Shown here piece by piece: positions 3,575-63,565 of a stretch of DNA of 64,000 bases. Numbering within the stretch: the stretch's first letter is position 1; the number at the start of each line of letters is the position of its first letter. The stretch spans positions 66,278,001 to 66,342,000 of the forward strand of contig CM069141.1 in the NCBI GenBank assembly GCA_035221665.1, written 5' to 3'. Both the position numbers and the translations under genes were made by a program. The notes beneath the pieces were generated by a model. It made no database searches. It was not told where the DNA came from and worked only from the letters and a program-made list of their open reading frames with translations. The stretch is from Okamejei kenojei (lineage: Eukaryota).

Positions 3575-4294
3575 ATGTCCCTCTACCTCCACCCCCCCCC
3601 CCCCCCATCCATTCCGTCCAAGGACCCTGACAGTCTTTTCAAGTGAGGCAGAGGTTCACTTGTACCTCCTCCGGCCTCATCTACTGTATCCGCTCTTCCA
3701 GGTGTGGACTCATATATATCGGCCAGACCTAGTGCAAGCGCGGCGATCATTTTGCTGAACACCTCCGCTCAGTCTGCCTAAGCCTACCTGATCTCCCAGC
3801 TGCTAAAACATTTTACTCTCACTCTCATTCCCACACTGACCTTTCTGTCCTAGGCCTCCTTCATTGTCAGAGTGAGGGCCAGTGCAAATTGGAGGAACAA
3901 CACCTCATATTTCGCCTGGGCAGCTTATACCCCAGCAGTATGAACATTGACTTCTTTAACTTCAAGTAACCTTTGCCTTTCCTCTCTCTCCATCTCTCCC
4001 CCTTTCCAGTTCTACAGCAAGTCTGACTGCCATCTTTTACATTTTATCTGTTTGCTTTGTTGTTACCTCCAAGCTAACAATGATCTATTTTACATTTTTC
4101 TTGATCTCCACCCCTTTTGTCTCAATTTCACACCTTACACTTCCTTAACTCTGCATCTCCCTCTCCCCTGATTCAGTCTGAAGAAGGGTCTTGACCTGAA
4201 ACATCACCCATTCCTTCTATCCAGAGATGCTGCCTGTCCCGCTGAGTTACACCCGCTATCTGGGTTTTAAACCAGCATCTGCAGTTCCTTGCTA
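3575..4294 (+). mobile_element. Penelope-like retroelement 3' portion (GIY-YIG endonuclease remnant, 3' UTR, hammerhead module, tail)
   Basis: 14-bp TSD tgtcatattaacct at 3561-3574 and 4295-4308; contains the GIY-YIG frame and a hammerhead-like core at 4178-4205. Confidence 0.88.
3619..3969 (+). pseudogene. GIY-YIG endonuclease C-terminus of a Penelope-like element, with in-frame stops
   Basis: Manual translation QGP*QSFQVRQRFTCTSSGLIYCIRSSRCGLIYIGQT*CKRGDHFAEHLRSV...KLEEQHLIFRLGSLYPSSMNIDF shows the IY...YIG motif and the catalytic E and N regions. Confidence 0.85.
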
Positions 4295-5349
4295 TGTCAT
4301 ATTAACCTTCCCAGCTTACATGGCTGTTTAGTACAGTAACTTTCTCAACCATTGACCTCCTTAACTAGGGGCATTGTTTAGTGCAGTAGCCTTCCTATCT
4401 TCCTAAAGGAAAAATTGAAGCACTGCCAGAATTCATCGGGTCAAGCACCATCCGCAGAGAGAGAAATACTCTAGACCCAATCTCTCTTTCCATCGATGCT
4501 GCTTGATTTCCAAAGTGCAGTCAACTATTTCTGTTTTCATTCACATTTGCAACTCACGCAGTTTTTAAAACGAAAATCACCCAATATTAGGCAAGAATAC
4601 CTTACTAAACAATCTTACTACTGACTCTACTAACCCAAAACACAGTTGGGCACAGTAACGTCCCTAGTTAATACCACTACTGCTCACAGTAACTTTCATA
4701 GACTTTGATTACATGTGTGCCACCTTCTGACCCATTATTGCTATTGGGCATAGAATCCTTTCCAATTATAACCAGTGGTGAATACAATGGTCTTCCTCAT
4801 CAACACTACTTGTGGGCCTTGAATTTTTTTTGATAAGTACGACTGTGAGTATTGTGAATTTCTTAACCAGTTCCACTATTTGAACAGGGAACTCTCTAAC
4901 CTATAGTACTGCTGGGCACACTTACTGTCCAAACCAGCTTTTGCTTTCCTGCAGTTTTGTTAGCTGACAATATCTGGCTATCTTGCAAATGAAAGAAACT
5001 CTTCTGTTTACACACAGGTACAAAGATATTGGTACCTTCATGCCAATAGTAGTAACATTGTTGCATTTTATCTTTTATGTGAATCATTTTGAAATCCATT
5101 CTGCTTTATGCCAGACTATGGTGCAAACAAAAGGCTGTTCACAAAACTGAAACCCATGGAACGAAGGGGCAGCATGAATGAGAAATTACCAACCACAGAA
5201 AGCTGAGTAAACTAATATTTTTAGTGAGCAATGATGTTCTTGGAGACACAAGAGACTGCAGATGTTGGAATCCTGAGCAAGTAACAAAGTGCTGGATGAT
5301 CTCAGTGGGTCAGGCAGCATCTGTGGACAGAAATGGACAGACAATGTTT

Positions 5350-5636
5350 AGAAACATAGAAAATAGGTGCAGGAGTAGGCCATTCGGCCCTTCGAGCCTG
5401 CACCGCCATTCAATATGATCATGGCTGATCATCCAACTCAGTATCCTGTACCTGCCTTCTCTCCATACCCCCTGATCCCTTTAGCCACAAGGGCCACATC
5501 TAACTCCCTCTTAAATATAGCCAACAAACTGGCCTCAACTATCTTCTGTGGCAGAGAATTCCACAGATTCACCACTCTCTGTGTGAAAAATTATTTTCTC
5601 ATCTCGGTCCTAAAAGACTTCCCCCTTATCCTTAAA
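5350..5636 (-). mobile_element. HER1/CR1 LINE 3' fragment inserted into a PLE remnant
   Basis: ccattcggcccttcgagcc...tgatcatggctgatcatcc 3' end and RVVNLWNSLPQK-type coding tail on the minus strand. Confidence 0.85.
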
Positions 5637-5719
5637 GTTTCCCCTCAGACTGATGGAGAAGAGGGGAGAAAGCTGGAGGAAAGAGATGAGGGAAAGGGAT
5701 GTGGCAAGTGATAGGTGGA

Positions 5720-6200
5720 TAGACACAAAAAGCTCGAGTAACTCAGCGGGTCAGACAGCATCTGGAGCAAAGGAACAGGTGACGTTTTGGGTCAAGACCC
5801 TTCTTCAGACTGAGAGTCAAGGGAAAGGGAAACAAGAGATATACCTGTAGATGGTAATGAAGAGAGATATTCAACAAATGAATGAAAGATATGCAAAAAA
5901 GTAATGATGATAAAGGAAACGGGCCATTGTCAGCTGTGGGCTAGGTGAAAATGAGTTACAGACAATGAGACTCAACAAGATGACTTTAAACCTTGTGCAA
6001 AGACTTGGGTGGGGGAAGGATGGAGAGAGAGGATATGCAAAGGCCCCCATCCAAGTTGATATGTGAGGTTCAAAGTCATCTTGTTGAGTCTCATTGTGTG
6101 TAGGAAAGAACTGCAAATTCTGGTTTAAACCGATGATGGACACAAAAAAGCTGGAGTAACTCAGCAGAACCCGCTGAGTTACTCCAGTTTTTGTGTCTAT
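5720..6200 (-). mobile_element. PLE 3' UTR/hammerhead module with an adjacent short fold-back copy
   Basis: gacgttttgggtcaagacccttcttcag (minus-strand core) plus 3' UTR homologous to 18400-18520 and 31380-31520. Confidence 0.75.
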
Positions 6201-7204
6201 CCAAGTTTGTCCAATCTCTGCATATAGCCAATACCCTCTAATCCAGGCAGCACTCTGCTGGAGCCTCTCCAAAGCCTCCACACTCTTCCAGAACCAGAAC
6301 TGAACGCAATACTCCAAATGCTTCCGAACCAAAGTTTCAGAAAGCTGCAAAATCTCACCGTGAAGGTCGCAGACAGAAACAGATGTACGTGCCACCAATG
6401 GGTGGTTTGTTGCAATTCTCAAAATCTAGCCCCCTCACTGCCATTTTTATAATATGATTGAAATGAGTAAAAATATAGGTCATGATTTGTAAGTTCTCTG
6501 CTATGTTGCAACAATGGCCGGACTTTGTTTGCCGACTCTTCTGTCTTTTAGGAACTACAGGAAGGATATGAAAGCAACAGAGAGAGTGCAGAGGAGATTC
6601 ACCAGGATCTATAATATTCTGACAGGATGAATGTGAGCTTGCTATGGCCACAGCTCTGCACTTGACCATCTGAATCTAAAGAGAGTAGGACTAGTCCATC
6701 ATAGGCTTGTCATGTCCTTCTATCCAGCCCATCTTCATGGTGCATTGCCTCAGGGAGGCAGGAAGTATTGTCAAGGATGGCTGCCACCCCAGTCATTCCC
6801 TTTTCACCCTTCTGGGAGAAGATGCAAGAGTTTGAAAGCTGAGACGTCCAGACTTAAGAACAGCTTCCCATCCACTGCTGCCTGAGGCAGTAGGTTAATT
6901 GACTTGGGATAAATATAATTTGCCCCTAATGTGTGTAGGGTAGTGTTAATGTGTGGGGATCACAGGTCAGTGAGGACTCTGTTGGCCTAAGGGCCTGTTT
7001 AAAACGCTGTTTCTCTAAACTAAACTAAACTACTCCTGAACCAATGACCTCTTTCACACGCCTTCCTTCATACTCCTCCTGTTAACTCTAACTCACTTGG
7101 TAAATTCATTATTATACGTCAATATTCTTTTGACGACACAGATTTTGCACCTCAATCCTGACCCCCTTCTGCTTTTTGCAATCGTCACTGTATTACTTGT
7201 TGCA

Positions 7205-9025: not shown

Positions 9026-10735
9026 TTTTGCATTTGTCAAAACAGGGTGAACCACGTGAAGGTTGCAATCTGCCCACCCACAATGAAGGTGTCAGGTAGC
9101 GTCTCTGGAGAACATGGGTAGGTGACGTTTTGGGCCGGGGTCCTTCTTCAGACTAGCTTACCATATGTCTTTGTTTTCTTTTTTAAACCAGCATCTGCAG
9201 TTCCTTGTGTCAGCATTCTGGCAAACATTTACTGCACACTCTCCAAAAAACCTCCACATCCTCCATGTAACAGGGAGACCAGAACAGCACCCAATCCTCC
9301 AAATATAGAACTAATCAGAATTTCATAGAGGTGCATCATGACTTCCTGACTCAATGAAGGCAAGCCTACCGCATGCTGGAAGATGATATATTTTACATGC
9401 TTCAGGTCTGAGTTTACACTTCCCAATATCATCAATTCCAGACCCTCACCCACGACCTCAACTCCCACCTCCAATGTAGTTCAAGCATTTTGCTTTCTTT
9501 GATCGACCTGTGCTAAGATGGCGACTCTCACTGGCTTATGATTCATGAAGGATTGTCTATCCTTCAATAACTTTCTCTGTTCATCCGTGAGGCTCTTCAC
9601 CTCTGAGTAATTCGTTATCAACAGAATGATGTGCGCAGGCTGCTAAGAGTGAGAGCCAATGCAACACAGGCCCAAGTGCTGCCCACTCATCACGCAGTTA
9701 CAAACATCTCTGCACAGCCTTTCCATCAGAGGGGATGGCTTTCTGTAGCATAGCTGATATTTGCTCAGAGCCGGCCTTAGGAGGTGCGGGGCCCAATTGG
9801 GAACAATTTTCATAGAAATATAAATAAATAATTATAAATGAGTTACGTGTCGTGAGTAATATGACAGTCAGTCGGCTTTAAAAAAATCTTAAACTGCGCC
9901 TGCGCAGATTGTTCTCCGTAAAAATAAAAATAAAAATAAATAAAGTAACAATTCAATTTGCCCAAGGCTTCCAGATCTCCTTTTTTCTGAATTACTGAAT
10001 GGGTGGGGGGTGGAGGGTGACGGCAAGTGGAAAGATGGTGGGAAAAACGGGAGCACACCGGGACAATTTGAATCAGTTGTCATCTTATTGAATGACTATA
10101 CTAGTTCACGGGACCAATTGGGGGGAGAGATCCTTTCACAGCGTGTGGGGAGTCTAGCCAGGGGTAAAGTTGTGGGGAGAGCGGGAGCGTTGATAAGGAG
10201 GGGGTTGGGTTCATGCCAGTAACCCACCCACTCACCGCTGTCGCGGCACTCTGGGCGCGGAATCACCGCATTGTGGCCGGGGACGGAAGCAGCTCGCGTG
10301 GCTACGAGCGTCCGCCATCATCGGACAGCGGAACCGACTGCCTTCTCAGCGCCTTCTGCCGGCCCGCTCACCTCTGGCAGTGCTCTCCATCTGAACAGTG
10401 AGGGGACCAGCTTAAGAGCAAAGATCATAGAGCGGAGTGGGTCAGCGGGCGATGGATAACATCACAGTGGGCTTTGGAGCTTACTCCTGTGTCAGCGCAA
10501 ACAAGGGATCAATTGGGGTTACTCGCACTGACATATGCAGTAAGCTCCACCGCCCACTGTCCTGTTATCTCCGACCGCCTCCTTCTCAACGCTCCTGCCC
10601 TCCCCGCAACTTTACCCCTGAACAGACTACCCACACGCTGTGAAAGGAACACTCCCCCCCCCCCCCAGCGGCGCTGTCCTTTTACAGCCGCTTCCCACTT
10701 TACAGCCGCTTCCCATCAGCTGCTAGCAATGAGGA

Positions 10736-10807: not shown

Positions 10808-10863
10808 CTTTCTTGGCTAACAACTAACCTTCGGCCTCCAAGATGCAGGTACATTTTCTAACA

Positions 10864-11814: not shown

Positions 11815-12329
11815 ATATATTGCAAACAGTGATGGAAATGGGTTTTAGGAACTAGGAATACGCTAAGGTCCGTGATGCTGAGGTTGGGAAGGAAGGGGTG
11901 GGGGGGGGGGGGGGGTTAGACACTATAAGCCCCGCATGAGAAATGTTATTTAACTCTGAAATTGAGGTTAGACAAAAGCTGGAGTAGCTCAGCAGGACAG
12001 GCAGCGTGCGGCTCTGGAGAGAAGACCCTTCTTCAGACTGAACTGAACTCTCGTCGGTGAGAGTACTTGTGATTGTCTGAAGAAGAGTCTCGACCAGAAA
12101 CTCAACCCTTTCCCCAGAGCCCCTGCCCGTCCCGCTGAGTCACCACAGACAGGGAGTTGAAGATAGACACAGAGGGGTCCACCTTCAACTTCAGAGCCAA
12201 ACAAAAAACACAGAGTGCTGGAGGAACTCAGCAGGCAAGGCAGAGGGAATATATCACTTATCAGGAGCCACCACGGGCCAGGACTCTTCCCCCCCCAACA
12301 GAAAGAAACCGCAGATGCAGCCGTCACCA

Positions 12330-12537
12330 CAAAGAAGGAACTGCAGATGCTGGAAAATCGAAGGTAGACAAAAATGCTGGAGAAACTCAGCGGGTGAGGC
12401 AGCATCTATGGAGCAAAGGAAATAGCCAACATTTCGGGCCGGCTCTGAAGAAGGGTTTCGACCCGAAACGTTGCCTATTTCCTTTGCTCCATAGATGCTA
12501 CCTCACCCGCTGAGTTTCTCCAGTATTTTTGTCTACC
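12330..12537. mobile_element. Fold-back mini-PLE hammerhead module
   Basis: Minus arm with tail plus a plus arm containing ctgaagaagggtttcgacccgaaacgtt; flanking accacaaa duplication. Confidence 0.8.
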
Positions 12538-13625: not shown

Positions 13626-13671
13626 TTGGAGGAGTTGGGCCGAAGGGCCTATATCCCTGCCGTATGTCTAT

Positions 13672-13848
13672 GAGTAGGAAGGAACTGCACATGCTGGCTT
13701 AAACCAAAGATAGAAACAAAATGCTGCAGTTGCTCAACGGGACAGGCAGCATCTCTGGAGAGAAGGAATAGGTGACATTTCCGGTCGAGACCCTTCATCA
13801 GACTGGAGAACCGCTGAGTTACTCCAGCTTTTTGTGTCTGTCTTCGGT
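13672..13848. mobile_element. Fold-back mini-PLE hammerhead module
   Basis: Minus arm with tail and core gacatttccggtcgagacccttcatcag, then a short plus arm ending gtgtctgtcttc. Confidence 0.78.
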
Positions 13849-16573
13849 AACACATTATGACTCTGAGTCTGGCTCAGACTAATCACTGACGTGGTCTGGT
13901 TCTTCACGGTGCATGTTTCATTTGTCTTATAATGTTGGCTGCTTTGTATCATGGATAAGTATAAGAGCATGGGAAATAAAACCACTTTCAAATGTTTGTC
14001 ATTGCCAGTCCTCACCTAGCCCAGAAAAGAAATGAGCAAGAGGAGCCTTGACTTAACCAACGATCGATCCCTGCTCTGTGGTACAGAGTGCTGTTCTTGT
14101 TGAGTGCTCTCTTACTCTACACCACAAACTAATTGCAAAGCAGCCACAAAGAACTATTATTTCATTACTTAACAGCCTCAATTAGAAGTGGTTGTTTTCC
14201 TAGGATCAGTGATGATATTTGAGAAAGTGGGTATAAATTCAGAGTCATAAGGTCATACAGCATGGAATCAGGCCCTTCAGCCCATGCCAATCAAAATACC
14301 CATCTAAGCTCATTCACCGGCGAAGTCTCATTTGCTTGCGTTTATCCCAGATCTCTCAAAACTGTTCATGTCGATGAAGCTGCCCAAGTGTCTATGAAAT
14401 GTTGTTATTTTAACAGATGAAGTATTAGTGATCAAGAGCAAGCTGCTTTATTGCACAATGTTCAGCTCATAGGATCTTGGCATCAGCTACTGTGCAGTGA
14501 TATCTGAAGGTTAATGTTGATGCTGAAGTGGTATGCATTTGTTGGATATATCAGTTTTCCAACCGATTCAGAGAATATAGTTGCATTAGTTGGCATGTGT
14601 TCATGACTTTGGCCATTTTAGAGGTGACTCAACAATAGAATTAATAACATAATACCATCCACTGCAGTGTAGTTTAAAGGAACATGACCTGGGGTCCAGG
14701 CTCTCACCTGCATTGGTAGGCCACTCGACCCTCACGTCCGCCCCATAATACAGCATGATCATGGCTGATCAAGGCTGGCCTCAACTACTCTTCCGTGCCG
14801 CTGTGCTGAAACTCTCAAGTTCTCAATCTTTCAAAAATATTTATTAATTAGGCCACCCTGCAACAGCTAGGTGACCAAGTGGATGAGCATGGAGTGATGG
14901 TGGAACCAGCTAAGGGCATTGTGCCAGGCCAGGTTGACTCCATCCTTCATCGATCCAGTCCCACCAGGATTCCGAGCCCCAAAGATAAGAAATTGCACAT
15001 CACCTTGTTGCAAAATGTGACTTTCTGAGACATTAAAGTTTCAAGTTGGCACCGTAACATGGCGACACTCTATGTGCTATTCCAGAAGAGGATCTATTGT
15101 AACCAATGCTTATTATGGTTTGAAATGCGTGCTGAAATACTGTTGTACACGTGACAATAAATAAACTAATATCTTGGCCATTCACATATAGTTTTTCTTC
15201 CCAGCCGCCAGGCTTGTGGGATCATCATCATCTGAAAGTTCCCTTCTACGTCAAACAGCATCACAACTTGGAAACATAATTGTCCCTTCATCAAAATCCT
15301 GGAACCTTTCTACTTAATAACATCTGCTTAATGAGGCACATCAATAATTGCACAATCGAAAGCAGAAAATGGTGGAAATGCTCAGCAGGTCAGACAGCAT
15401 GGGGTGGAAAGCAGAGTGAATGTTTTTGGTCTGCAGCCCTTCTGTGGAACCAGCAAAGAGAGAAAACCAGTCAGCAGCAGAACAGTTGTCTTATCTCATT
15501 CCCTGTTTTGACGAAGGGTCTTAAATCTGAAACCTTCACTCTGTTTCCCATTCCACAAACGCAGCCTGACCTGCTGAGTGTTTCAGATAGTTTCTAGGTT
15601 TTTTAAATTTCAGATTTATACCATGTGCAGTTATGTTGTTTTTGAACAACTTCTCAATGGTAGTTAGGGAGACAGGCGTAAATGCCATAATATCAGTTAT
15701 CCCACATCCTGCCAATGTAGAAAATGTGCATTCCACACTTGATGAAATCTTATTCAAGACGCTTTCTGAATCAGCCTTAGCTGCAATTACTGGGGGTGTG
15801 ATCAACATAAACTTCTGATGATCATCTGAATGTCATTAGCAAAAAGCAAAGGCAGTATCTGTGGTTGGAATGGACAGACAAAGTTTCAGGCCGGGACCTT
15901 TCTTCAGACTGAGTTTTATTCCATGCTCTTTGTTCTATGCACATTCTACATATATGACATTTTGCATTCAGTTATCTTTTATTTTTGTTGAGGTTATTAC
16001 GGCATTTCCCAAGGCTATGTGCTTCCCATATGTTTAGCAATAGTTTTCACACTCTTAGTTAAGAACAGAGGTTGTTTCTTCACCCAACCAAACAGTAATT
16101 CCCTGCCAGAGCAGTAATAAAAACTAGCCTATTAGTTTAGTTTAGTTTAGAGAAATAGCACGGAAACAGGCCCTTCGGCCCACCGAGTCTGCGTCGACCA
16201 GCGATCCCCACACACTAACACTATTCTACATACTAGGGATCCTACAATCCATTTGCATATAGGTGCAGGCAGTTGGGAAATGCTCAGTGCTTCTCTCTAT
16301 TGATTGAGAGATTGGCAGATGACCAGTCATGGTCACCATCTGGTGACCAAGCCCTCAATGGTGTAGTGAAAATGGCGTGATGGTCAACATGACTACAAAT
16401 GTAATCACATTAATTTGCTTTTATTCCAGTAGTCCAAAATTCTAACTTTGCAGGGACTGGGAACGTTTTGATACTGGTACTAAATGAATCCTTCAATACA
16501 TAAATCATAAGTAATAATCACCTTGAAAAATGGCCAGGCCAAAACTGATATTTATTAAGCCAGTCTAGGCAAA

Positions 16574-16927: not shown

Positions 16928-17446
16928 TAAAGAGGTCACTCACTTCCAAGTTTGAAGGACATGATGTCAAGGGGATTCCAATGGCTTCTCCAATCTACTT
17001 TAGTGGGGTGGTGAGGGAGTGTTGCCTTGTTAGGGGCTAACAGCTATAAACTACATGCAAAACTCCAGCTCAAAATGCCCTTTCAGGTGCTAATTAAAAT
17101 CTGCTTGTGCAATTTGAATGAAAAAGGCACAGGATTTTTTCTGTTGACCTTTTGTCAATGAGCAGCGCAAATAAATAGATTTTGCCGCCATTTATATTTG
17201 TGCTGTCTGCAGGGCCATGCTGTGTATACATTTCTTACATTACAGTCTTGACTAGGTTCTAAAGGAATCTACGTTATTAGTCATAGGACACTTAGTAACA
17301 GAATGCAGCCATAGAAGATACAATACAAATGAAAGATTTACTTTTTATTTTGATGTCTAATCATTGTTTTCTGAATTATTCAGGTGCATTGTCTGAAAAA
17401 TAAAATTCTGCACAAAAATATTCTGTGGGGCCACAGATTTTTTCGG

Positions 17447-17836
17447 TGTGGGAAGGAACTGCAGTTGCTGGTTTTCACCGAAGATAGACACAAAAAGATG
17501 GAGCAACTCAGTGGGTCAGGTGGCATTTCTGGAGAAAAGGAATATATGATGTTTTGGGTCGTGTCCCTTTATTGGACCTAATACGCCGTTTCGGGTCGAG
17601 ACCCTTCAAGAGACCATTTAGCATCCACTGCCTCTCCTATCTTCACCGCCTTCCCAGCCGATCCCAGGCCTAGACCACCAAAACTTCCACAGCCACCGAC
17701 CCTCACCGCCTCGCTGGAGCCACAGCTGCTTCTGCCGTTGTCAGATCTGATGAAGGGTCTTGACCTGAAACGCCACCTACTCCATTTTTCCATAGATGCT
17801 TCCTGACCCGCTGAGTTACTCCAGCATGTCTATCTT
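17447..17836. mobile_element. Fold-back mini-PLE with a 140-bp GC-rich insert between the arms
   Basis: Minus arm with tail; non-PLE segment 17608-17746; plus arm ctgatgaagggtcttgacctgaaacgcc. Confidence 0.75.
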
Positions 17837-18164
17837 GATTGGTGTCTTGGTTTGAATCTCAGCTGCCTAGTTCTGGTGGGGAAGACATCACATTGAAAAT
17901 ATGAACACATAATTTGTATCTGAATACTTCATTTCAGTGTTTTGCAACACATTGTTGCCCATCACACAGGGTCCTTCATCTGCCAACAGTAATTATGGGA
18001 AATGGTCACGATTCTCCTTTTTATTGTATCAATCCTGCAGAATTAATATTTCACTAATACTCGAAACTGAAAATGCTGGAAATACCCGTCAGCTCAGGGT
18101 GCATCTCTGGAAGAAGAAACAGTAAGTGTTTCAGATCTGAACTGGGAAAGAGAGAAGATCTCCA

Positions 18165-18662
18165 GGTTGCTGGACACTTTAATTCTCCTTCCCAAACCCA
18201 CAAAAACCCTTTCTGTCCTAGGACTCCTCCATTGTCAGAGTGAGGCTAGATGTAAATTATAGGAACAGCATCTCATATTTCGCTTGGGCAGTTTACAGCT
18301 TAGTGATATGAATATTGATTTCTCTAACTTCAGGTAGACCTGGCATTCCCTCTCTCTCTATCCCTCCCCCACCCAAGTCGTTCCAGCTTCTCGTTTTCAC
18401 CCTACAAATAGCTGTGAATCGACTGTTTCCTTCATCATCATTACTTTATTGCATATTTTTCATTCATTGTTCTTTATCCCTCTCCATCATTATCTATAGC
18501 TCTCGTTTCCCTTATCCCTAACTTGTCTGAGGAAGGGTCTCAGGTTTCTCAGTCTCACGTTTCAGGTCAAGTCTGAAGAAGGGTCTCGACCCGAAACGTC
18601 TCCCATTCCTTCTCTCCAGAGATGCTGCCTGTCCCACTGAGTTACTCCAGCTTTTTGTGTCT
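18165..18662 (+). mobile_element. PLE 3' fragment (GIY-YIG end, 3' UTR, hammerhead)
   Basis: LSVLGLLHCQSEARCKL*EQHLIFRLGSLQ remnant; consensus core at 18573-18600. Confidence 0.85.
18573..18600 (+). ncRNA. Minimal type-I hammerhead ribozyme motif (PLE-associated)
   Basis: CTGAAGA-A-GGGTCTCGACCC-GAAAC-GTC: CUGANGA, stem II, GAAA, palindromic ACGU helix III and GUC site; helix I is very short, so activity is unproven. Confidence 0.7.
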
Positions 18663-19264
18663 AAGAGAGAAAACAAGTTAGTTTTAAGTTGAAGTTGGGG
18701 AGGGATAGATAGGCCAAAATAAATGGACACCTGTGATAGGGTGAGGCTAGCCTTTGCCAGTCTTGTGAAATCAATAGAAATTTCAAAAAATTCCCCTTTG
18801 CCCACAGGGTAATCTCAGTAACAAAAAACATTGCTTTGGAGAGTTTGTCGGATATGTGCAGTATCTCTTTAAGAACAAGATCTTCTACAAAATCAAAACA
18901 ATATTAATAATCAGGTTTACTTCAGAAGATCGTGCTTTGAAAATTGGCACTGGTACGGTAAATATGACAGGATTATTGAAGACAAAATATCTTTTTTATT
19001 TTAATTATTTTAGTAACATTGCGATGTATCCAGCTAAATAAACTGCAGCAGGATTGGAAATCTACTAAACAAGACTCAAGCTCATCTCTTTTTTAATATA
19101 AAATAGAAGCTGGCTTCATTAAAGAAAATTACCACAGTTATCCCAGCTCACTGTGAAATAACAAAACTTGCAGAAAACAATACTTACGTCATTACTTAAA
19201 TATTTATAATTATTTGCATTATTGTATGATTACATTATTGAGATGTTATGAAATTATACAGTGA

Positions 19265-19884: not shown

Positions 19885-19945
19885 ACTGGTCGTGTCCTTG
19901 GAGGTCAACAAACCTCTGTCATGAATGGACAAAAGAGGAATAAAT

Positions 19946-20158
19946 GTGTAGGATAGAACTGCAGATGCTGGTTTAAATCGAAGGTAGACACGAAATGCTG
20001 GAATAACTCAACAGGACAGGCAGCGACTCTGGAGAGAAGGAATGGGTGACGTTTCAGTTCAAGTCTGAAGAAGAATCTCGACCCGAAATGTCACCCATTC
20101 CTTCTCTCCAGAGATGCTGCCTGTCCCGCTGAGTTACTCCAGCATTTTGTGTCTACCT
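19946..20158. mobile_element. Fold-back mini-PLE hammerhead module with TSD
   Basis: 14-bp TSD aaagaggaataaat at 19932-19945 and 20159-20172. Confidence 0.88.
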
Positions 20159-20187
20159 AAAGAGGAATAAATCTGTATTCATGTTGT

Positions 20188-21562: not shown

Positions 21563-21925
21563 TGTCATAAGTGATTGGAGCAGAATTAGGCCATTCGGCC
21601 CATCAAGTCTACTCCACCATTCAATCATAGCTGATCTATCTCTCCCTACTAACCCCATTCTCCTACCTTCTCCCCATTACCCCTGACACCTGTACTAATC
21701 AAGAACCTATCTATCTCTGCATTAAATATATCCATTGACTTGTCCTCCACAGCCTTCTGTGGAAAATAATTCCACAGATTCACCTCCCTCTGATTAAAGA
21801 AATTCCTCGATAGACACAAAACAGGCAGTATTACTGGAGAGAAGGAATGGGTGATGTCTTGGGTTGAGACCCTCCTTCAGACTACAATTCGGGTCGAGAC
21901 CCTTCTTCAGACTGAAATTCCTCCC
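21563..21925 (-). mobile_element. CR1 3' fragment interrupted by a mini-PLE with tandem hammerhead cores
   Basis: gaaattcctc duplication at 21800-21809 and 21914-21923; two minus-strand core copies at about 21853-21912. Confidence 0.75.
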
Positions 21926-25055: not shown

Positions 25056-25159
25056 CCAGACCTACAATGGAGCCCAGCAGTCTGAAGAAGGGTTTTGGTC
25101 CGAAACATTGCCTATTTCCTTCGCTCCATAGATGAGTTTCTCCAGCACTTTTGTCCACC

Positions 25160-32454: not shown

Positions 32455-32470
32455 TACACACGTGTGCATG

Positions 32471-44105: not shown

Positions 44106-44274
44106 GTCGGAAAGAATTGCAGATGCTGGTTTAAATTGAATGAATGGTTGCCATTTCGGGTCGAGACCCTTCCTCAGTCTGAAGAAGGGTCTCGACCCGA
44201 AACGTCAACCATTCTTTCTCTCCAGAGATGCTGCCTGTCCCACTGATTTACTCCAGCATTTTGTGTCTAGCCAG
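44106..44274. mobile_element. Fold-back mini-PLE with head-to-head hammerhead cores
   Basis: TSD gtttttttgatgt at 44093-44105 and 44275-44287; plus core 44179-44206. Confidence 0.88.
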
Positions 44275-44596
44275 GTTTTTTTGATGTAAGGTTCTGGTGA
44301 ATTTGTGTCCCTCCTGATGTTCCAGGTTTAGTGAGGGACCATCATTATTGCATTCTGTCCATGTGTGGCTTTCTTACAGGTATCATCAGCAGGAAAGTAA
44401 AATGGCCATTTAATTATCTGTCCTAATCAATAAGCCAATCGTGACTAATTGCTCAGTTCATTCCCTCGTACAGAAAAATAATAGCGGGTCTCCATACAGA
44501 GAGGGTGGTAGACATCAGAGGGTTGTGGATGCTGGATCATTGAGGATATTTAAAGAGGAAGCAAATACATTTTGGAACTGTCAGGGAATTGAGGGA

Positions 44597-44781
44597 TAGA
44601 CACAAAATGCTAGATTCACTCAGCGGAACAAGCAAAACGAACGGGTGACGTTTCACACGGTCTCGACCCAAAATGTCACCGATTCCTTCTATCCAGAGTT
44701 GCTGCCTGTTCCGCTAAATTAATCCAGCATTTTGTGTACATCTTCTGTGTAAACCAGCATCTGCAGCTCCTTTCTACAAAT
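44597..44781. mobile_element. Fold-back mini-PLE
   Basis: TSD agggaattgaggga at 44583-44596 and 44782-44795. Confidence 0.85.
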
Positions 44782-45750
44782 AGGGAATTGAGGGAGACTG
44801 GAACAGACACAGAAGAGGAGATGAGCATAGAATAGATCAACTACCATCATATAGCTATATGGACGGGAAAGGAATGGAGGGTTATGGCCTGAGTGCAGGT
44901 AGATGGGACTAGATGAGAATAAGTGTTTGGCACGTACTAGAAGGGCCGAGATGGCCTGTTTCCGTGCAGTAATTGTTATATGGTTATATGGAAAGATAGG
45001 GCAGGTTTGAGGGGCGAAGCAGCCTAAACCTGCTCCTTTTATTACATTCTTTCCAGGTGTTAACACAGCTAGTCGTAGATAATGTATTGTATTTTGAGTA
45101 TTGTAACATAGAGGAACACAATAGACTGTCACCATCTTAATGCACAGATCCAAGACACATTAGACCGGCAAAATTAATTATCAGTATGGTAGCTGAATAT
45201 GTAAATATATGTTTTCTGGGATTTAATAAACTGTGACGGCAGAGTCCTTAATGTTAAACACTATGAATCCCATGTGATGGTCTGCTTCCGTCAGGCAGAA
45301 GGGTGAGTTTGTTGGGACTGAATGCTCTCTGTGAAGGCAGCTTCATTCCTGATTCTCTTAATCGATTAACTACTGTTTTTCACACAGCTGTTCTGCAGAT
45401 ATTCAGCATGAGCCAGCTGGGGTCATTGTAGAATTTACCGTGAGCTTTGTAAACAACATCCTGCTGCTGAGCATTTGCCATTTGCTACAAAGTTGGCTAA
45501 AGGCGACAGATTTATCAGGAAAACAATCTTTTCTGTTTTAGTAATTTTATTTCTATTATTGACCCAAAGTGCTGCACTTATTGTGCCACTGCTGGTTGTA
45601 ACTTTACTTAATCACCTTTATGAAGGCCTGCACAAACGGAGAGTAGAGATTCTTATCATTTTTTTAATCTGACCCTAGTCTTGGGTGTCGTCTGACCAGC
45701 TTGTGTGGAAGGGCTTGCGATCAGTAAGAAAATGAAGATGAGTAGACTGT

Positions 45751-45962
45751 CGGTGTAGGAAGGAACTGCAGATGCTGGTTTACCCCGAAGATAAACACAA
45801 AATGCTGGAGTAACTCAGCGGGACAGTCAGCATCTCTGGAGAGAAGGAATGCATGACGTTTTGGGTCGAGACCCTTCTTCAGACTGTCAACATCACCCGT
45901 TCCTTCTCTCCAGACATGCTGCTTGTCCCGCTGAGTTACTCCAGCATTTTGTGCCTATCTTC
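45751..45962. mobile_element. Fold-back mini-PLE
   Basis: TSD gagtagactgt / gagtatactgt at 45740-45750 and 45963-45973. Confidence 0.85.
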
Positions 45963-46719
45963 GAGTATACTGTATGTTGGGTCCATTAATTCCGCCTCTG
46001 CCAACAGGCTACAGGGAACCGCCAGCAAGTAGGAATAATATCAATGAGCACTCGAGGCTAGCATCGACATGGTGTGCTGAAGGGCTGAAGGGCCTGTTGT
46101 GTGCTCTATCACTTTGTGTATCTACCTCGTATCTAACTTTGTAGACTTTCTAGTTGAACCACTGTTGGTCCCTGTTTGATGTGGACATCTCTGCTTGGTA
46201 CCTGTGGAAGCTTTAATGCTTGATTGTACATCTCAACATTTGCTTAGGATTTTAAATTACGGACACTATCAGAGACAATCATGATCAAAAATGAGACCTG
46301 TTGCTCACCTCAAAATCCATGTTCCTTTGCATAAAATGAGTGCAATAATTGTACTGTCATTTTCCATGAACATTTCAGGCTGCTGCAAGGAAAATTGCTT
46401 ACAATTTTGTTGTAAATTTTGTTACAAAATGGCAACAAAGCTTTGGAGTAAACCTTTTATTCTGATCAGCTAAATCAAAGTGAGTGAATGAGGACGTTGA
46501 GTTTCACGTGACATGTGACAGAAGGCTCAGGATTGTACACATATCATGAGGTGTCACGATCCAATGCAGCTATCATCGGCACGGAACTGGCTGCCTGTTT
46601 CACTTCAACTTGTTTCCACATCACTACATTTAATTCTGGTGTTTTGATGAAAGGTTTTCAACCTGAAACCTTACCTCCAGATTCCTTCACGCAGATGTTG
46701 CATGACATGCTCAGTGTTT

Positions 46720-47246
46720 AGGAAGGGACTGCAGATGCTGGTTTAAACCGAAGATAGAAACAAATTGCTGGAGTAACCCCTGAAGCTGAGCACCTTCACT
46801 CAGTCCGTCTGGACCTACATGATCTCCCAGGTAGCCAAACACTTTAATTCCCCTTCCCATTCCCACACTGACCTTTCTGTCCTGGGCCTCCTCCATTGTC
46901 AGGGTGAGGCCAAATGCAAATTGGAGGAACAGCACCTCATATGTAGCTTGGGCAGTTTACAAGCTAGTGGTGTGAATATTGATTTCTCTAACTTCAAGTC
47001 ACCCTTGCAAGTTATACTAGCTTCAAAGTTGTCTTGTTGAGTCAAATTGTCAGCAACTCAGCTGTGTTTTCAATTAGCTCACAGCTAGCAATGGCCTGTT
47101 TCCCTGATCATCGTTACTTTTTTTTCATATCTTTCATTCATTTGTTCTATATCTCTCTATATCACCATCTATATCTCTTGTTTCCCTTTTCCCCTGACTC
47201 TCAGTCTGAAGAAGGGTCTTGACCGAAAACGTCACCTATTCCTTGC
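46720..47246 (+). mobile_element. PLE 3' fragment with inverted tail arm, nested in an older PLE module
   Basis: ORF 46819-47040 VAKHFNSPSHSHTDLSVLGLLHCQGEAKCKLEEQHLI; flanking cagtgttt duplication. Confidence 0.82.
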
Positions 47247-48072
47247 CCAGTGTTTCCAGTGTCATAGAGTCATAGAGTCACAGAGTGATACAGTTTGTAT
47301 CAAACTTCGGCCCAACTTGCCCACACCAGCCAACATGTCCGAGCTACACTAGTCCCACCTGCTCGCATTTGGTCCATGTCCCTCCAAACCTGCCCTAACC
47401 AGTTTTTTGGTGTTATTTCACATTTCCAGCATCTGCAGGTTTTTTGATCTTCACTAACATCCTGTAAATCATGCAAGAAATAGATGAGACCTGTTTCATT
47501 GATGCTCGTGGATGAAGGGGCAGTAGAGCGTGGTGGGGCAGGAGGATTACAATGTTTTGGCTCTTGGCACCTGAAGGCACAGCCACCAGTGTGGAGCTAA
47601 TAAATCAGGGATGCTTAAATGGGAAGAATTAGAGTAATAGAAATAAGATGGAAGGTTGTGTTGCTGAAAGAGATAACAGAGAGAGAATATAGAGGCCATG
47701 TAACGATGAGAAGATAGTATTGGGAATGTGGGATGGAGAGTCTGCCTGGCTTGATTTAAATGTAGTGAATTTGCAATTTGTTTAACCTATTGAATCAATA
47801 TGAATGAAAAACTGGGCAGTATCCAAAAAGGGCAGCCTATATATCTTGAGACAAACTTCAGGCAGTCGGGGACCTTATGTCTCTATGTTTCTATGTTTCT
47901 CCAGGTTAGAGTCCCGGCGGTTGGGCCAAAGTGGACGGGCCATGTTGCTGAGAACCAAGGGGGACCCGGTGTGTGGGGGGGGGGGGGGAGGAGGGTGGGG
48001 GGACGGGGGGGGGGGAGACGATGACACAAGGAGAGGATCCAACGTTATTTAGATAACATTTTGTATCTCTAA

Positions 48073-57386: not shown

Positions 57387-57688
57387 AATGTTACTTGTGT
57401 TGCTATCTCAGCTTCAGCAGCTCAGGTCTGCTCTCTGCATAAAGCTACATGATCTCCATGTGACAACCTATATTTCCCTTTGGGTGCTCCTGTTTGGTTC
57501 CTGGTAAATAGCCCCTTGTGCAGTGTCTATGGTAGAATTGACGGGAATATGGGGAGAATAGGTTATAACAAAGACTTAAGGGGCCAAAAGGGTCTCCTTG
57601 AACGTCATAATATGAAAAAGAATTACTTTGGCAATCCATGAAATGATGCAACAGTAATGCCCTTGGAGAACAAGGCTATGTGGAGAAG

Positions 57689-57889
57689 AGAGACACAAAA
57701 TGCTGGAGTAACTCAGCACGACAGGCATCTCTGGATAGAAGGAATCGGTGACTCTTTGGGTCGAGACCCTATTTCAGACCCGAAGCGTCGCCCATTCCTT
57801 CGATTCAGAGATGCTGCCTATCCCGCTGAGTTACTCCAGCATTTGGTGTTTGTCTTTGGTGTAAACCAGCATCTGCAGTTCCTTCCTAC
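57689..57889. mobile_element. Fold-back mini-PLE
   Basis: TSD acaaggctatg(tg/ca)gagaag at 57670-57688 and 57890-57908. Confidence 0.85.
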
Positions 57890-58537
57890 ACAAGGCTATG
57901 CAGAGAAGCCATACCACCCTACTGCAGGATTCCAAATGTAATTGGACACCTGCATGGAAGTTTGGACAGTACTGAACATCAGAACTGCTCTTATTTTTTA
58001 TCCAATGCACCCCCATGTGCAAATGCTTGTAATCTTTGCCGATACAGGTACCTGCTGAGCATTGGTGTATCAATGAGGTAACGGGTGGCTTAGTTAACAG
58101 TGTTAACAACAAAATTACTTTCCTTTGAGATCAGCAATGCCAGCATGGAAGGGTTGTATATCTCTACAAGTCTGCCAGCATCTGAAAAAAACATGTCGCT
58201 TTTCATGCCCGAATATCACCATTCGCCTTCTGTTAATAACAGTCGCAGTTGGTGTATATTTAGGTTTTATTTGTTGCCTTAAATGGCATTTTGTGAAAAG
58301 GTGCCAAGGTGTGGATTAGGAGATGGGTGACGGAGAAAAGGGAGGTGGTGGGGATCGCTGAGAGCACCGGAGCATTAGCTGGAGTTGGCTGAAGGGGAGC
58401 AGGTGGATAGAATGGCAGGAACGCTTGGGATAGGTGAGGTTGAGGGAGGGAAAGCTTGAGAAACACTGGCTAGTTGATGAAGAAGAGGTTTATAATTCCC
58501 TATGACAGGGGTGGATGCAAGATGGATGGAAAAAATA

Positions 58538-58618: not shown

Positions 58619-59768
58619 TAGGTATGTTACAAAACTTACCTTCAGCGGCGCTGCAGTTCTGTCACTGCCCGTGTGCGCGACTTTGGCGCCTTTGAGAGGG
58701 GGGCGGGTTTAAAATGCCATTTTCTCCAGCCTGTTCAAATCGATCTTTGTCAGTCTGTTTGGTTGCTGAAGAAAAATCACTCTGACGTACGTTCTCTGAA
58801 GTTTTTTTTAAACTACACTGGATAATTTAATAGCAGGAGTAAATTAAAAGGCGTCTTCTAAAGCCGTCAATGCCGACAACAGGACGGATCTCACGTACGG
58901 GACAAAGCAAGGTACGCCGTTTATTTTTACATATAAACATGCTTCTTAGGATGCCTTTAATCAAAATTTCATGTTGCGAAAAGGTGACAGGCCCCATACG
59001 AACCGGCAGTATTTTTCCTGCCGATATGGGGTTTAAATGCAACACAAATGCAACGTTCCAAACGACCGCGTTCCACAAAATCCCACGATTTAAATGGCCA
59101 TTCATTTACGGGAATTAAACACTAAATTCCTTCCATTTGGCCTATAAATTCATGACAATGAGATTTAAAAATCATGTCCCTGTGTGAATGTTATTTGGAC
59201 ACTTAGGCTATTTAAAAATGTTAACCTTTTCTTAAGAAATGGATAGATATTTAGATCTAGTAATTGAATTTTGTAATTAGCTACAATTAGGTAACTAACT
59301 AATTATATGCTTTACTTTCAGGTCATCCAAGTAAGATTGTTTCATTTCTGAAGAAGGGTTTCGGCCCGAAGCGTTGCCTATCTCCTTCGCTCCATGGATG
59401 CTGCTGCACCCGCTGAGTTTCTCCAGCATTTTGTGTAAACCCTCGATTTTCCAGCATCTGCAGTTCCTTCTTTAACAAGATTGTTTCATATTTGTTTCAA
59501 AATGCTTCAATCTATAATAACTGAACATTTCCTTCAGTTCTCTTAATTTTTAATAAAGTTAGGGGCTTTTGACTGTCCTTGATCACAGCTTTTGAGTTAA
59601 GTCAATGGAAAAGCAATAGGGAACAAGGTGCTAATTTCCGAGTTTGAACATGGCTATAACTTTTTTAATACTGAAGATATGAAAGTGAATTAGGTATCAA
59701 ATTGAACTTATTTTTATGCTTTATCTGATGGGATAAATTGCAGACTTGATTTTTAAAATCTCAAAATG
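58618..59768. mobile_element. Non-autonomous DNA-transposon-like element (same family as 10864-11814), running into the gap; mini-PLE nested at 59346-59476
   Basis: Reverse-complement homology to 10870-11760; nested insert TSD aagattgtttcat at 59333-59345 and 59477-59489. Confidence 0.65.
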
Positions 59769-60831
59769 NNNNNNNNNNNNNNNNNNNNNNNNNNNNNNNN
59801 NNNNNNNNNNNNNNNNNNNNNNNNNNNNNNNNNNNNNNNNNNNNNNNNNNNNNNNNNNNNNNNNNNNNNNNNNNNNNNNNNNNNNNNNNNNNNNNNNNNN
59901 NNNNNNNNNNNNNNNNAAGCTTTATTGGAATTCCTTTTTGTCACATATCACGGGTCCATTGTTCTACCCCTCCCCCCTCCCGGTGGTTCCCCCGCACCCT
60001 CATTGACGGCCGACCGTGGGTTGACCCGTGAGACTTCACCGCCGTTGGCAGCATGGCCCCACTGCCGCCTCACAACCCAGGCAGCTCAAGTGTCGCAACA
60101 TGCTGGTGCCGGCAAAGTTACAAAAGTACCGATCGGTGTCGACACTACTGTGCAGTTCAGCTTTGGGGGAGCCAGTGATTATGTCGCTTGATCAGAGAAT
60201 TTTGGCATATTTATGAGATCAGCCTCTGATTTGACCTGCTTTGAGCCATCTCAACTGGGAAGACGTGTTTTCCCGTTTGTGGGAAATCTGGCAGCTGAAG
60301 TAAGACAAGGAAATATTCTGGAAGAAGGTAATTTCCTTCACAACACTGGTTGGATAAGAAGGACTACGTCCCCGTCTCCCACATCCGAGCTTTACTTCCT
60401 CTATGAGGGATCCATTATAAAATCAGGATTGGGCCACCATCAATTCTATGGGTTGACAACTTTGGAATAGGGGATCATCCTTCTGGTCCAACAGAATTGG
60501 GAATCAGAAGTACAGCTAGCCCTCGTCCAGAATCAGGGTTTGGACTTTAGGCTCCGTGATCAGGGGAAAATGGAGGAGGACTGGCCAAATGTTGTGCCTT
60601 CCACCACAGTGATGAATGCTGTGGTGGATGTTTGTGTTAAATTTTTATTTTTATTGTGTATTGTGTGTTCTTTATCATTGTACCGCTGCAGGCAAATTCA
60701 TTTCACTTGCAACTTTATGTGCAATGTGACGAATAAAACCATATTGTATTGTATTGTATTGTATTGTATTGGGAAGCTAAAGCTGGTTCTGGAACTTCCC
60801 CACTCACTAGGGAAACAAATCTGACAATCAG

Positions 60832-61069
60832 AAGATAGACACAAAAAGCTGGAGTAACTCAACGGGTCAGACGGCATCTCTGGAGAAAAGGAATGGATGA
60901 CCTTTCAGGTTGAGACCCTTCGTCTTCACCATCATCTGATGAAAGGTCTCGACCTGAAACGTCACCTATTCCTTTTCTCCAGAGATGCTATCTGACCTGT
61001 TGAATTACTCTAGCATTTTGTGTCTATCTTCAGTCTAAACCAGCATCTGCAGTTCATTGTTATACAAAG
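60832..61069. mobile_element. Fold-back mini-PLE
   Basis: TSD tctgacaatcag / tctgacaaccag; core ctgatgaaaggtctcgacctgaaacgtc at 60936-60963. Confidence 0.85.
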
Positions 61070-61754
61070 TCTGACAACCAGCTTGACTTCCCACTGCAGT
61101 ATTAAACTCCACCCGATGTGGAGGCCAGATTATACATCCATAATCCCGTTTCCCTGTTTACAAAACCGGACATGTATTATCCAGTTTAATTATAACCAAG
61201 CCCAATATCACAGTAATGGAAAGGAGACCTGGATTTGGCACGGTTTTCCAGTTGAGGTGATCGATAACTGGATCAAGTACCTTCCGGTTACTCTAGCTCC
61301 TGAACTCTGGAATCCTGTGTTGTTCACCTCACCCCAATGTTCAATGGATAACTGTTGGCCATATGTTACATCAGCACACTCTCTAAAAATTGTCTAACAA
61401 CTAGGAAGCCATGGAATGAGGAATCAACCAAATTCTAAGTATAATGATGAGGAATTTACAGTATGCCCATTGATCTAAAATTAACGATGCTCTGGCTTTG
61501 GTTCAAGATATCCATTTATCTAGAGCAGCTCCATTTAATAGACTTGTCATTCAGATCTCCTGAGGGACTTTCACAAACTATCTACACCTCTCATTACAGT
61601 CTATGATCTGTCCACTGTAGAGGTTTATTCCAACCAAAGACAAATATGTCCGTGAGATTTTCCCAGCAGCAGATTGTTGGAATCCTCAGAGAAATGTCAC
61701 AGCAGCTAGGAACTGTCACTTATGCCATTTCTCTCTAGTTAAGTCGTACAATAG

Positions 61755-62085
61755 GTCATAAGGTCATAAGGAATAGGAGTAGAATTAGGCCATTCGGCCC
61801 ATCAAGTCTACTCCACCAATCATGGCCGAAGAAGGGTCTTAACCCAAAACATTGCCAATTCCTTCTCTCCATAGATGCTGCCTCACCCGCTGTTTCTCCA
61901 GCATTTTGTGTCCACCTTCAATTTTACCAGCATCCGCAGTTCTTTCTTAAATGGCTGATCTATCTCTCCCTCCTAACCCCATCCTCCTGCCTTCTCCCCA
62001 TAACCTCTGACACCTGTACTAATCAAGTGTCCATCCATCTCTGCCTTAAAATTATCCACTGACTTGGCCTCCACAGCTTTCTGCC
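61755..62085 (-). mobile_element. CR1 3' fragment interrupted by a mini-PLE (about 61829-61951)
   Basis: CR1 3' end split at atggc. Confidence 0.78.
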
Positions 62086-63417
62086 ATTAGCTTAACATTA
62101 GCCAAATCTAGCTTGCACTCGTACCATCACTGAGTCCCCGACTATTCTCTCTGCCCACATTATGCCAGTGTTCACTTCCCATCCAGTGCTCGGACAACCA
62201 AGAGCTTTGTTATTCTGACTTTAAAAAGCAACCCATTTTTTCCAAATAGGCACATACTTTTAAGTTGTCGTGAAATCAAACTAACAAATTCATGCTGTCA
62301 CCTCCAAGTTGTCTTTCCCTAGTGAAAAAAAATCAACATTCATATAAATCATTTTATTTTATTTATTCACTACTTTGAACTATTTTCAACTATTCATCAT
62401 TGTGGTTCTGATCCAATAGCTTCTGGAAGTAAAAAAAAACAATGAGGAAGAACATCACAAGCTCAGGAGCAGGCCAGTTCACCCTTCGGCCCACCACCAT
62501 TCAATGTTTTCACCCATTCTCCTCTCATCCCTTGGCTTCCTTGTGGTTGAAATATCTTCCAATCTCTACCTTGAACATGTATACATGTTACTCATGTACA
62601 CTATGATTGGATTGGATAAACCAATACCAATAACAATATGGTTAACAATTCTGCCTCCACAAATCTCTGGAGTTATGAATTCCGGAGATTCATGAATCCT
62701 TAAATCAGAAATTCCTCTTCATGTCCTTCTGGGAGAAGAACTCCTCCTCATCCCCATATGAAATGGTTGATCTCTTAGTCTGAAACCGTTCCCCCTAGTT
62801 CTAGAAATCCCATGAAAGTATCTCAGTATCAACAATGCTAACCCCCCCCCCCTTCGGAATATAATATGTTTAATAAACTCATCGCTCAGCTTCTAAACTC
62901 CAATGAATATAACAACTCCCGTCAATCTGTTCAACCTTACTTCATCTGCCAACCCTTTCATTCCAAGAATCAATCCAGCGAACCTTCTCTGCACTGCCTC
63001 CAAAATGAATGCAGCCATAGCTCTGAACATTACTTTGGTGATTATTACAAGCTTACTGTCCGGTTGGCAAACTCATGGAAATGTTCTTGCCTAATATTGC
63101 TAAGATATATATTTGTATTTGCCACATTGTCATGCAGATGTCAGCCTTGGATAATTAGCAAGATATGTTGGTTCAGAAGTACAGTCCTTCAGGCAGCATG
63201 TTCATGGTTTAAAAACCTTTACTGTATCCAATGCTCTCTAATATCATTATAGTGCCTACATCAACGATCTCTTCTGGCAGCTTGTTCCATATACCCGCCA
63301 CAGTCAATGTGAAAAAGTTGCCCCTTAGGTTCCAAGTAAACCTTTCCCCTCTCACCTTAAAACTATATCCTCTGCGTTTTGATTCCCCTACTCTGGGTAA
63401 TAGATCCTATGCATTCA

Positions 63418-63565
63418 GAAGATAGACATAGAATGCAGTATCTCTGGATAGAAGGAATGAGTGAAATTTCAGGTCGAGACCCTTCTTCAGATTGAAGAAG
63501 GGTCTCGACCCGAAACGCCACCCATCCATTCTATCTGAAGATGCAGCTTGTCCCGCTGAGTTACT
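63418..63565. mobile_element. Fold-back mini-PLE with head-to-head cores
   Basis: ggtcgagacccttcttcagattgaagaagggtctcgacccgaaacgcc. Confidence 0.78.

Follow-up and report, generated by a model that had tools for sequence, protein, structure and literature searches.

The subject of this analysis is a short module that recurs throughout a 64,000-nucleotide stretch of Okamejei kenojei DNA (contig CM069141.1, positions 66,278,001 to 66,342,000; hereafter the window, with positions counted from its first letter). The module carries the motif of a minimal hammerhead ribozyme, and an earlier note on the same DNA had regarded it as an independent, retrozyme-like family. In our opinion it is the terminal repeat of a Penelope-like element (PLE) of the Neptune type, and its many separate copies are probably short products of that element's own reverse transcription. 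A profile hidden Markov model built from nine long-tail copies finds 49 matches at 39 loci in the window, 10 of these loci being head-to-head pairs (a second run gave 50 matches); two masked stretches (362 bases) may conceal extra copies. If the first core base is +1, the module ends at one of two places, about +92-96 (short tail) or about +130 (long tail). The features of the window are as follows, with paired opposite-strand copies given without a strand (TSD, target-site duplication; UTR, untranslated region; EN, the GIY-YIG endonuclease).

769-815, + strand: module fragment without the core start
3561-3574, + strand: left 14-bp TSD of a PLE fragment, identical to 4295-4308
3575-4294, + strand: 5'-truncated Neptune-type PLE, with a GIY-YIG C-terminal fragment (3631-3966, one in-frame stop), 3' UTR and a long-tail module from 4174
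4178-4205, + strand: minimal hammerhead core of the 3575-4294 PLE fragment, G16.2 decayed
4295-4308, + strand: right 14-bp TSD of the PLE fragment
5248-5332, - strand: module fragment without core
5718-6043, - strand: short-tail module (5718-5812) with about 235 nt of PLE 3' UTR upstream
6095-6208: small inverted pair of module 3' parts without core
9079-9154, - strand: decayed solo module
11959-12146: decayed head-to-head pair
12334-12537: head-to-head pair, long (-) and short (+) arm, + core intact
13669-13848: head-to-head pair, long (-) arm and truncated short (+) arm
15509-15632, + strand: old divergent module
15848-15911, - strand: old module, core and partial body
17445-17570, - strand: long-tail module, core start missing
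17746-17836, + strand: short-tail solo module, N7=T
18066-18138, - strand: inverted module fragment directly upstream of the 18157 PLE fragment
18157-18664, + strand: 5'-truncated PLE with EN end, 3' UTR and short-tail module (18570-18664), core intact
19943-20159: head-to-head pair, long (-) and short (+) arm, 14-bp TSD; a single long hairpin of -138.6 kcal/mol
21820-21914, - strand: module with locally duplicated core
25078-25155, + strand: module of the GUU subfamily
28170-28259, - strand: short-tail solo module
29225-29346, + strand: old long-tail module, N7=G
29729-29861, - strand: long-tail solo module beginning at the core
31278-31651, - strand: 5'-truncated PLE with EN end, 3' UTR and short-tail module (31278-31374), core intact
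32620-32754, + strand: long-tail solo module, 17-19 bp TSD, beginning 2-4 nt ahead of the core
34310-34395, - strand: decayed module
37486-37585, - strand: short-tail module
38011-38144, + strand: long-tail module
38675-38807, - strand: long-tail module with about 146 nt of PLE 3' UTR upstream
40098-40222, - strand: short-tail module of the youngest subfamily, about 35 nt of 3' UTR, 13-bp TSD, core intact
42705-42755, - strand: module fragment without core
44136-44275: head-to-head pair, arms overlapping at a TCAG/CTGA micro-palindrome, + core intact
44595-44782: head-to-head pair, short (-) and long (+) arm, 14-bp TSD, both cores truncated
45752-45965: head-to-head pair, long (-) and short (+) arm
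46714-46779, - strand: inverted long-tail fragment adjoining the 46785 PLE fragment
46785-47310, + strand: 5'-truncated PLE with EN end, 3' UTR and module from 47202
57685-57894: head-to-head pair, short (-) and long (+) arm, 11-bp TSD
59347-59478, + strand: long-tail solo module from the core, 13-15 bp TSD, U.G stem variant, A15.1 lost
60829-61067: head-to-head pair, short (-) and long (+) arm
61825-61952, + strand: long-tail solo module
63434-63565: head-to-head pair, both arms 3'-short

That such a module recurs here, as the earlier note observed, is beyond doubt, and its abundance extends to the whole genome: an exact 28-nt motif matches 50,628 times in 2.76 Gb, and the reversed control not once. 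In 40 stretches of 10 kb taken at regular coordinates, 154 module matches cover 15.5 kb of the 400 kb. This would mean some million matches and about 4% of the genome; the estimate is rough, since smaller chromosomes contributed half of the sampled stretches. Within the window a complete core with a 4-bp stem II is present in only 12 of the 49 matches, 6 of which keep the palindromic CG as well. The five copies first described as clean do lie at the coordinates and on the strands given for them, although one (60936) is off the motif at two stem positions. An Rfam scan of the window gave no hammerhead family at E values up to 1; its matches to miRNA families are hairpin artefacts from palindromes and simple repeats.

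The parent element is seen in the longer copies. The fragment at 3575-4294 ends in the module inside a perfect 14-bp TSD, so the earlier statement that the module terminates a GIY-YIG-encoding PLE is correct. An upstream walk through the genome, each probe lying further 5' than the last, brought up 9464, 5724, 2209 and 891 first-look candidates, which is a truncation ladder. At L276 a 701-residue frame matches RVT_1 (E=4e-6) and GIY-YIG (E=7e-4), both barely below the Pfam cut-off; the two window PLE pieces alone gave no Pfam match. One open reading frame (ORF) contains a reverse transcriptase (RT) with YIDD, a CX4CxxC linker and, at the C-terminus, a GIY-YIG of CCHH type, that is with two cysteines between GIY and YIG. 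This is the layout of an EN+ PLE, and the same order is described for the Neptune clade (PMC8557442, PMC3846280). A linker of the form CX2-5CxxC and a CCHH GIY-YIG define the Neptune and Nematis PLEs (PMC8557442), hence the parent is probably one of these two, by domain definitions and not by a tree. The vertebrate PLEs reported in one recent account are Neptune and Poseidon only (bioRxiv 10.64898/2026.07.22.740005). The family also has a pseudo-LTR (pLTR; LTR, long terminal repeat), inverted truncated copies, a one-sided tail of 30-40 bp and TSDs of variable length; Neptune-clade descriptions likewise include heavy 5' truncation, head-to-head inverted copies, an optional tail at one end and TSDs of about 10-17 bp. 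The difference here is that stubs consisting of the terminal repeat alone dominate, at roughly a million matches, and share their 5' boundary with full-length copies.

Long EN-bearing copies finish in the module at one or the other of its two ends. In seven long copies the module also stands on the 5' side and reads into the ORF; three of these (L153, L171, L172) start at the core and four (L154, L162, L166, L179) have upstream sequence. At L302 a copy of about 4.1 kb, belonging to the youngest subfamily, begins no more than 3 nt from the core, stops at the short 3' site and lies within a 13-bp TSD. From L302, and from the modules at the 5' side and 3' end of long copies, it follows that the module is the element's terminal direct repeat of 95-135 nt (pLTR end plus tail). 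Exact matches running into the ORF number 117, versus 24,921 long-tail ends genome-wide, by patterns that differ in length. The RT region of the youngest subfamily has 37 matches genome-wide, and one of the nine long copies examined is full length. L302 is the only full-length young copy found, and its contig contains this 3' end, with its flank, a second time.

Some details of the ORF start may be recorded beside this. In the largest subfamily (L153:1025-1230; window 4178-4294) the frame from the core CTG runs through the module without a stop and shares its phase with the ORF ATG at about +165; other subfamilies interrupt this frame by a TGA or a 1-nt insertion. The same ATG overlaps a splice-donor-like AAG|GTATGT.

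The anatomy of the stubs was studied in 1.264 Mb, of which 664 kb were chosen regardless of the motif (the unbiased part) and 600 kb were centred on exact matches. There were 868 matches, and 270 members of tandem arrays were set aside. Among 362 non-array matches with the core start present and 400 nt available upstream, 125 are solo, 109 are palindrome arms and 128 have upstream homology of 20 to more than 400 nt, mostly PLE 3' UTR or EN. Solos and palindrome arms therefore make up 234 of the 362. Exact TSDs of at least 10 bp flank 22 of 108 solos against 5 of 1069 shuffled controls (lengths 10-17, mode 14), and 24 of 101 head-to-head units against 0 of 1000 controls. Many of the modules were thus inserted as units of their own by the PLE machinery. 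The earlier view of many free-standing copies with TSDs of their own holds in that TSD-bounded solos exist well above chance; it does not extend to the window as a whole, where exact TSDs of at least 11 bp were found at only 7 of 39 loci, nor to the 128 copies with upstream homology and the 109 arms. Certain stubs (L059, L065, L193:8956, L233:4439), some of them with clean TSDs, have landed inside older copies of the same PLE.

Both ends of the stubs are confined to particular sites. At the 3' side, 130 single copies end short and 98 long, at two sites about 35 nt apart. Most of the 30 copies that pass the long tail (L241-L270) stop again 50-250 nt beyond it, which suggests that rarer RT start sites may exist there. 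At the 5' side, ends pile up at about -6 to +4. For 165 unbiased non-palindromic copies the hazard of a 5' end is 0.035 per nt at +4 to -19, 0.009 inside the core and 0.003-0.006 elsewhere or upstream, so just ahead of the core it is about 7-fold higher; at the predicted cleavage site there are 0 of 165 ends. In 14 of the 22 TSD-defined solos the 5' end is at -6 to +4. The letters upstream of the 125 solos are T at -1 in 96, G at -2 in 75, A at -3 in 75 and C at -4 in 46, and are about background from -6; the last large step in composition is A(-3). The 3' UTR types differ, yet all converge on CAGT ahead of the core. These two fixed 3' ends and the 5' pile-up had been overlooked earlier, together with the asymmetry of the palindromes described below.

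The TCAGT ahead of the core resembles an initiator (Inr). An internal TATA-less promoter is reported within the pLTR of D. virilis Penelope (PMC2377424), and a rotifer PLE pLTR has an Inr-like TCACT (PMC3846280). A pyrimidine tract followed by CAG could also be a splice acceptor; we reject this origin of the boundary, because TSDs abut the core in 14 of 22 solos and leave no room for an upstream exon. In four sequence runs made up of contigs the depth of the module exceeds that of RT, with loose ends at the core start. We do not count this as evidence, since two of them are probably DNA and the boundary is also the point where 3' UTR types diverge.

Of 101 head-to-head pairs, 81 can be classified: 72 have one long and one short arm, 7 are short plus short and 2 long plus long, whereas independent arms would give 40 mixed pairs (p about 1e-13). 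In the unbiased part the count is 43 of 47. The arm that is more complete at the junction may be either one (32 versus 19, with 21 equal), and in many cases the junction contains a spacer or a deletion. Inverted pLTRs with a tail on one side only are already in print (PMC8557442, PMC3846280). The long-plus-short pairs would be explained most simply if both nicks were primed, each from a different start site.

The next question is whether stubs and long copies are one family or two. Clustering of 324 aligned copies on 21 variable positions placed 264 in six subfamilies and left 60 out. Five of the six hold solo, palindromic, mid and long truncated copies, and the sixth lacks only the long class (at least 200 nt upstream); class proportions show no difference across subfamilies (chi-square p=0.22), and no subfamily is specific to solos. 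Divergence is likewise equal across classes within each subfamily. In the youngest the median is 0-1.3% in all classes, and solos (14 in 1.26 Mb) and palindromes occur there beside a ladder of lengths that runs smoothly from 31 to 1463 nt. Pairs of cores on one strand, no more than 450 bp apart, are at chance level (29 versus 28 expected). Tandem cores at a spacing of 96-126 nt give 93 matches genome-wide versus more than 50,000 single cores, and some are short core-only minisatellites. Retrozymes are defined by head-to-tail tandem units, each with a hammerhead; here tandems are rare and subfamilies and ages are shared with the long copies. Therefore the proposal of a separate retrozyme family is not supported. 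The other half of that proposal, a PLE-derived module in very high copy, is confirmed by its identity with PLE ends and by the genome-wide count.

The hammerhead itself is, as first proposed, of the PLE-type minimal type-I kind. The subfamily consensuses have the CUGANGA and GAAA core boxes, an NUH site, an extra base after A9, G10.1-C11.1 and a palindromic 15.2-16.2, and like the published minimal hammerheads they lie in a pLTR (PMC4209133). Most motifs in the same report are dispersed singly, with a probable relation to truncated PLEs, and opposite-strand pairs occur as well. The helices differ: helix II has 4 bp and helix I only 2 bp (U-A or U.G plus G-C), compared with the typical 7-8 and 4-5, and a longer helix I through distal pairing was sought by eye and not found. 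A variant with a 2-bp helix I is described for D. virilis (PMC4209133). In the two supplementary files on minimal hammerheads that were searched, sharks and skates are not represented.

Across the six consensuses the core does not vary (0 of 11 positions versus 17 of 63 in the body, p=0.06; C or U at H17), which is consistent with selection on master elements. Individual copies give a different picture. N7 is indeed variable, as had been noticed (13/135 versus 49/1190 for the rest of the core, p=0.008), and is the most variable non-CpG core position. Stem II is kept no better than the module body in unbiased copies, and the catalytic G12 is lost in 40 of 161 of them, decaying like other CpGs. 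The earlier note saw stem II pairing preserved by compensation. The G-C to A-U swap of the 60936 type is seen 4 times against 3.7 expected from independent decay, and we reject it as CpG decay. The T of the supposed G-U pair at 12445 sits in the tetraloop if stem II has 4 bp, and the U.G at 59348 is a subfamily variant in a copy that has also lost A15.1. Apart from loop changes, the sole difference in stem II among consensuses is U-A to U.G, and no compensatory pair exceeds chance in the consensuses or the unbiased copies. Predicted folds of three single copies give stem II pair probabilities of 0.07 or less in all three, with no preference for the hammerhead, and consensus folding of 12 copies yields a weak body stem only; both are silent on dimers. 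The hammerhead, a predicted ribozyme, is likely a passenger on the PLE end stubs.

Taken as a whole, we consider it probable that the modules are the terminal repeat of a Neptune-type PLE, and that solo and mirror copies are short cDNAs made from two internal start sites on uncut RNA, with the hammerhead as a passenger. The RNA would have its first base at, or close to, the A that lies 3 nt before the core within the conserved TCAGT. With the repeat at both ends of this RNA, cDNAs primed in the 3' repeat would form the usual ladder of 5'-truncated copies, and a cDNA primed in the 5' repeat would be a strong-stop-like stub that reaches the 5' end of the uncut RNA. The endonuclease would nick both target strands about 14 bp apart, both 3' ends would be extended, one from each start site, and the stubs would join head to head with one long and one short arm. 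Either autonomous masters, through their mRNA, or truncated copies with the promoter retained, through read-through RNA, could supply the template. Several points weigh against this account. The position of the transcription start is one that we infer; 5' ends are scattered across about 10 nt, and 8 of the 22 TSD-defined solos have 11-43 additional bases at the 5' junction. The solo class could contain copies with 3' UTR types missing from the reference library. Near-full-length copies that start at the core are only L153, L171, L172 and L302, whereas L154, L162, L166 and L179 extend upstream, and L302 (G000:C916) sits on a small 44-kb indel-rich contig. Finally, non-CpG divergence is 4.1% in the core versus 6.6% at invariant body positions (p=0.001), which is what weak selection on re-transposing solos would give, or may be ascertainment, because only copies aligning from the core were included.

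We put forward a bolder version tentatively, with somewhat less than even confidence: integration may be twin-primed by design, one enzyme dimer extending both staggered nicks from two fixed RNA sites, with the stub as the commonest product, amounting to a few percent of the genome, and with the "hammerhead" doubling as a downstream part of the internal promoter. For the main account, the Poseidon element PAc of Anolis carolinensis offers an in vitro precedent (PMC11167929). As described there, its protein nicks and extends both target strands, the template is uncleaved RNA without need for hammerhead cleavage, and two adjacent internal RT starts in AC-rich sequence, about 100-130 nt downstream of the hammerhead, define the tail. 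It differs in belonging to another clade, and its evidence is biochemical, with no strand difference in the start site, versus the strongly long-plus-short genomic pairs here.

Among other explanations, the 5' pile-up might reflect RT stopping at, or jumping past, a folded or protein-bound hammerhead on a longer RNA, so that stubs are extreme 5' truncations from the 3' repeat. We regard this as unlikely. The boundary does coincide with the core start, the hazard is mildly raised within the core (0.009 per nt), the TCAG/CTGA micro-palindrome at the boundary provides microhomology, and the ends spread across several bases. However, the near-full-length L153, L171, L172 and L302 start at the same point, as an RNA 5' end would, and the predicted folds do not favour stem II. 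RT usually stops on the 3' side of a structure, which also counts against it.

An independent non-autonomous family, its RNA cut by the hammerhead in dimeric or circular form and its movement supplied in trans by a PLE, seems to us improbable. It would accord with the stand-alone TSD-bearing insertions, the very high copy number, the invariant consensus core and the few core-bearing tandem arrays, and animal retrozymes are reportedly derived from pLTRs (bioRxiv 10.64898/2026.07.22.740005). Nevertheless, there is no solo-only subfamily, no end lies at the cleavage site, tandem cores are at chance level locally and number 93 genome-wide, G12 decays like other CpGs and helix I has 2 bp. In a palindrome the two cores lie on opposite strands, so that they can form no dimer, and both are sequestered in a hairpin. 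By analogy with Anolis, where the template required about 55 nt downstream of the RT start (PMC11167929), stubs would lack a sequence needed for their own copying. Animal non-LTR retrozymes do share with our modules a non-coding nature, a type-I hammerhead, a relation to pLTRs and dispersed monomers; theirs are head-to-tail tandems with a hammerhead per unit and circular RNA (PMC7229834; bioRxiv 10.64898/2026.07.22.740005), whereas in our case cores seldom stand in tandem, the ribozyme is of the minimal and not the canonical kind, and no PLE-independent family was found.

It is hard to give much credence to the palindromes as fold-back products, in which a cDNA reaching the 5' end primes itself at the TCAG/CTGA micro-palindrome and copies itself. 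Several junctions overlap exactly there (44136-44275, 63434-63565), and self-priming has been proposed for rotifer PLE palindromes (PMC3846280). Yet a self-copied arm has no reason to stop at a second fixed site, as 72 of 81 pairs do, and among single copies, too, the 3' end is most often the short one; the fuller arm at the junction can be either of the two, and spacers and deletions are frequent there. Recombination between direct terminal repeats, as for solo LTRs, is hardly credible: the TSD-bounded L302 has the repeat at both ends, and a solo derived from it would keep exact ends and TSD, but the repeats are just 95-130 bp, full-length copies are very rare (37 RT matches genome-wide, 1 of 9 long copies) versus 14 solos in 1.26 Mb, and palindromes would be unexplained.

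Two kinds of tandem array deserve separate mention. One subfamily has seeded a 54-bp minisatellite (+41 to +95, without the ribozyme core), bounded by a TCCATG direct repeat, at dozens of loci with unlike flanks and up to 20 units. It is concentrated near a chromosome end (L184-L240, on G000:C1, mostly 1.87-3.0 Mb, for example L229:7613-8703 and L223:99-1109; also L111:8301-8548). There are also rare arrays of 39-60 bp units that each have a hammerhead core (G000:C2:52296769, C472:6718-7314, C21:47491673, C7:5127437). A tandem-repeat pipeline would call these retrozymes, and they are a natural place for testing dimer cleavage. Elsewhere in the window, 5349-5630 and 1090-1370 are other abundant interspersed repeats, presumably resembling CR1-like LINE ends and a cartilaginous-fish SINE.

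The layout of PLE ends with minimal hammerheads, inverted copies and tails is already in print, and the class is ordinary. Our literature searches on cartilaginous fish listed no paper on this PLE family, and it may well be catalogued in Dfam or Repbase. The useful part is the statistics: hundreds of thousands of stubs record the start and end points of copying. The 72 of 81 long-plus-short pairs favour two-site priming of both nicks as the origin of the one-sided tail and the inverted repeat, and the absence of ends at the cleavage site bears on whether the ribozyme cuts the PLE template. A biochemical test is practical because a very young subfamily exists. For annotation, it means that hammerhead counts in such genomes are mostly dead PLE stubs and not retrozymes; and for the family as a whole, the fixed ends of the stubs hint at the mechanism by which PLEs insert.

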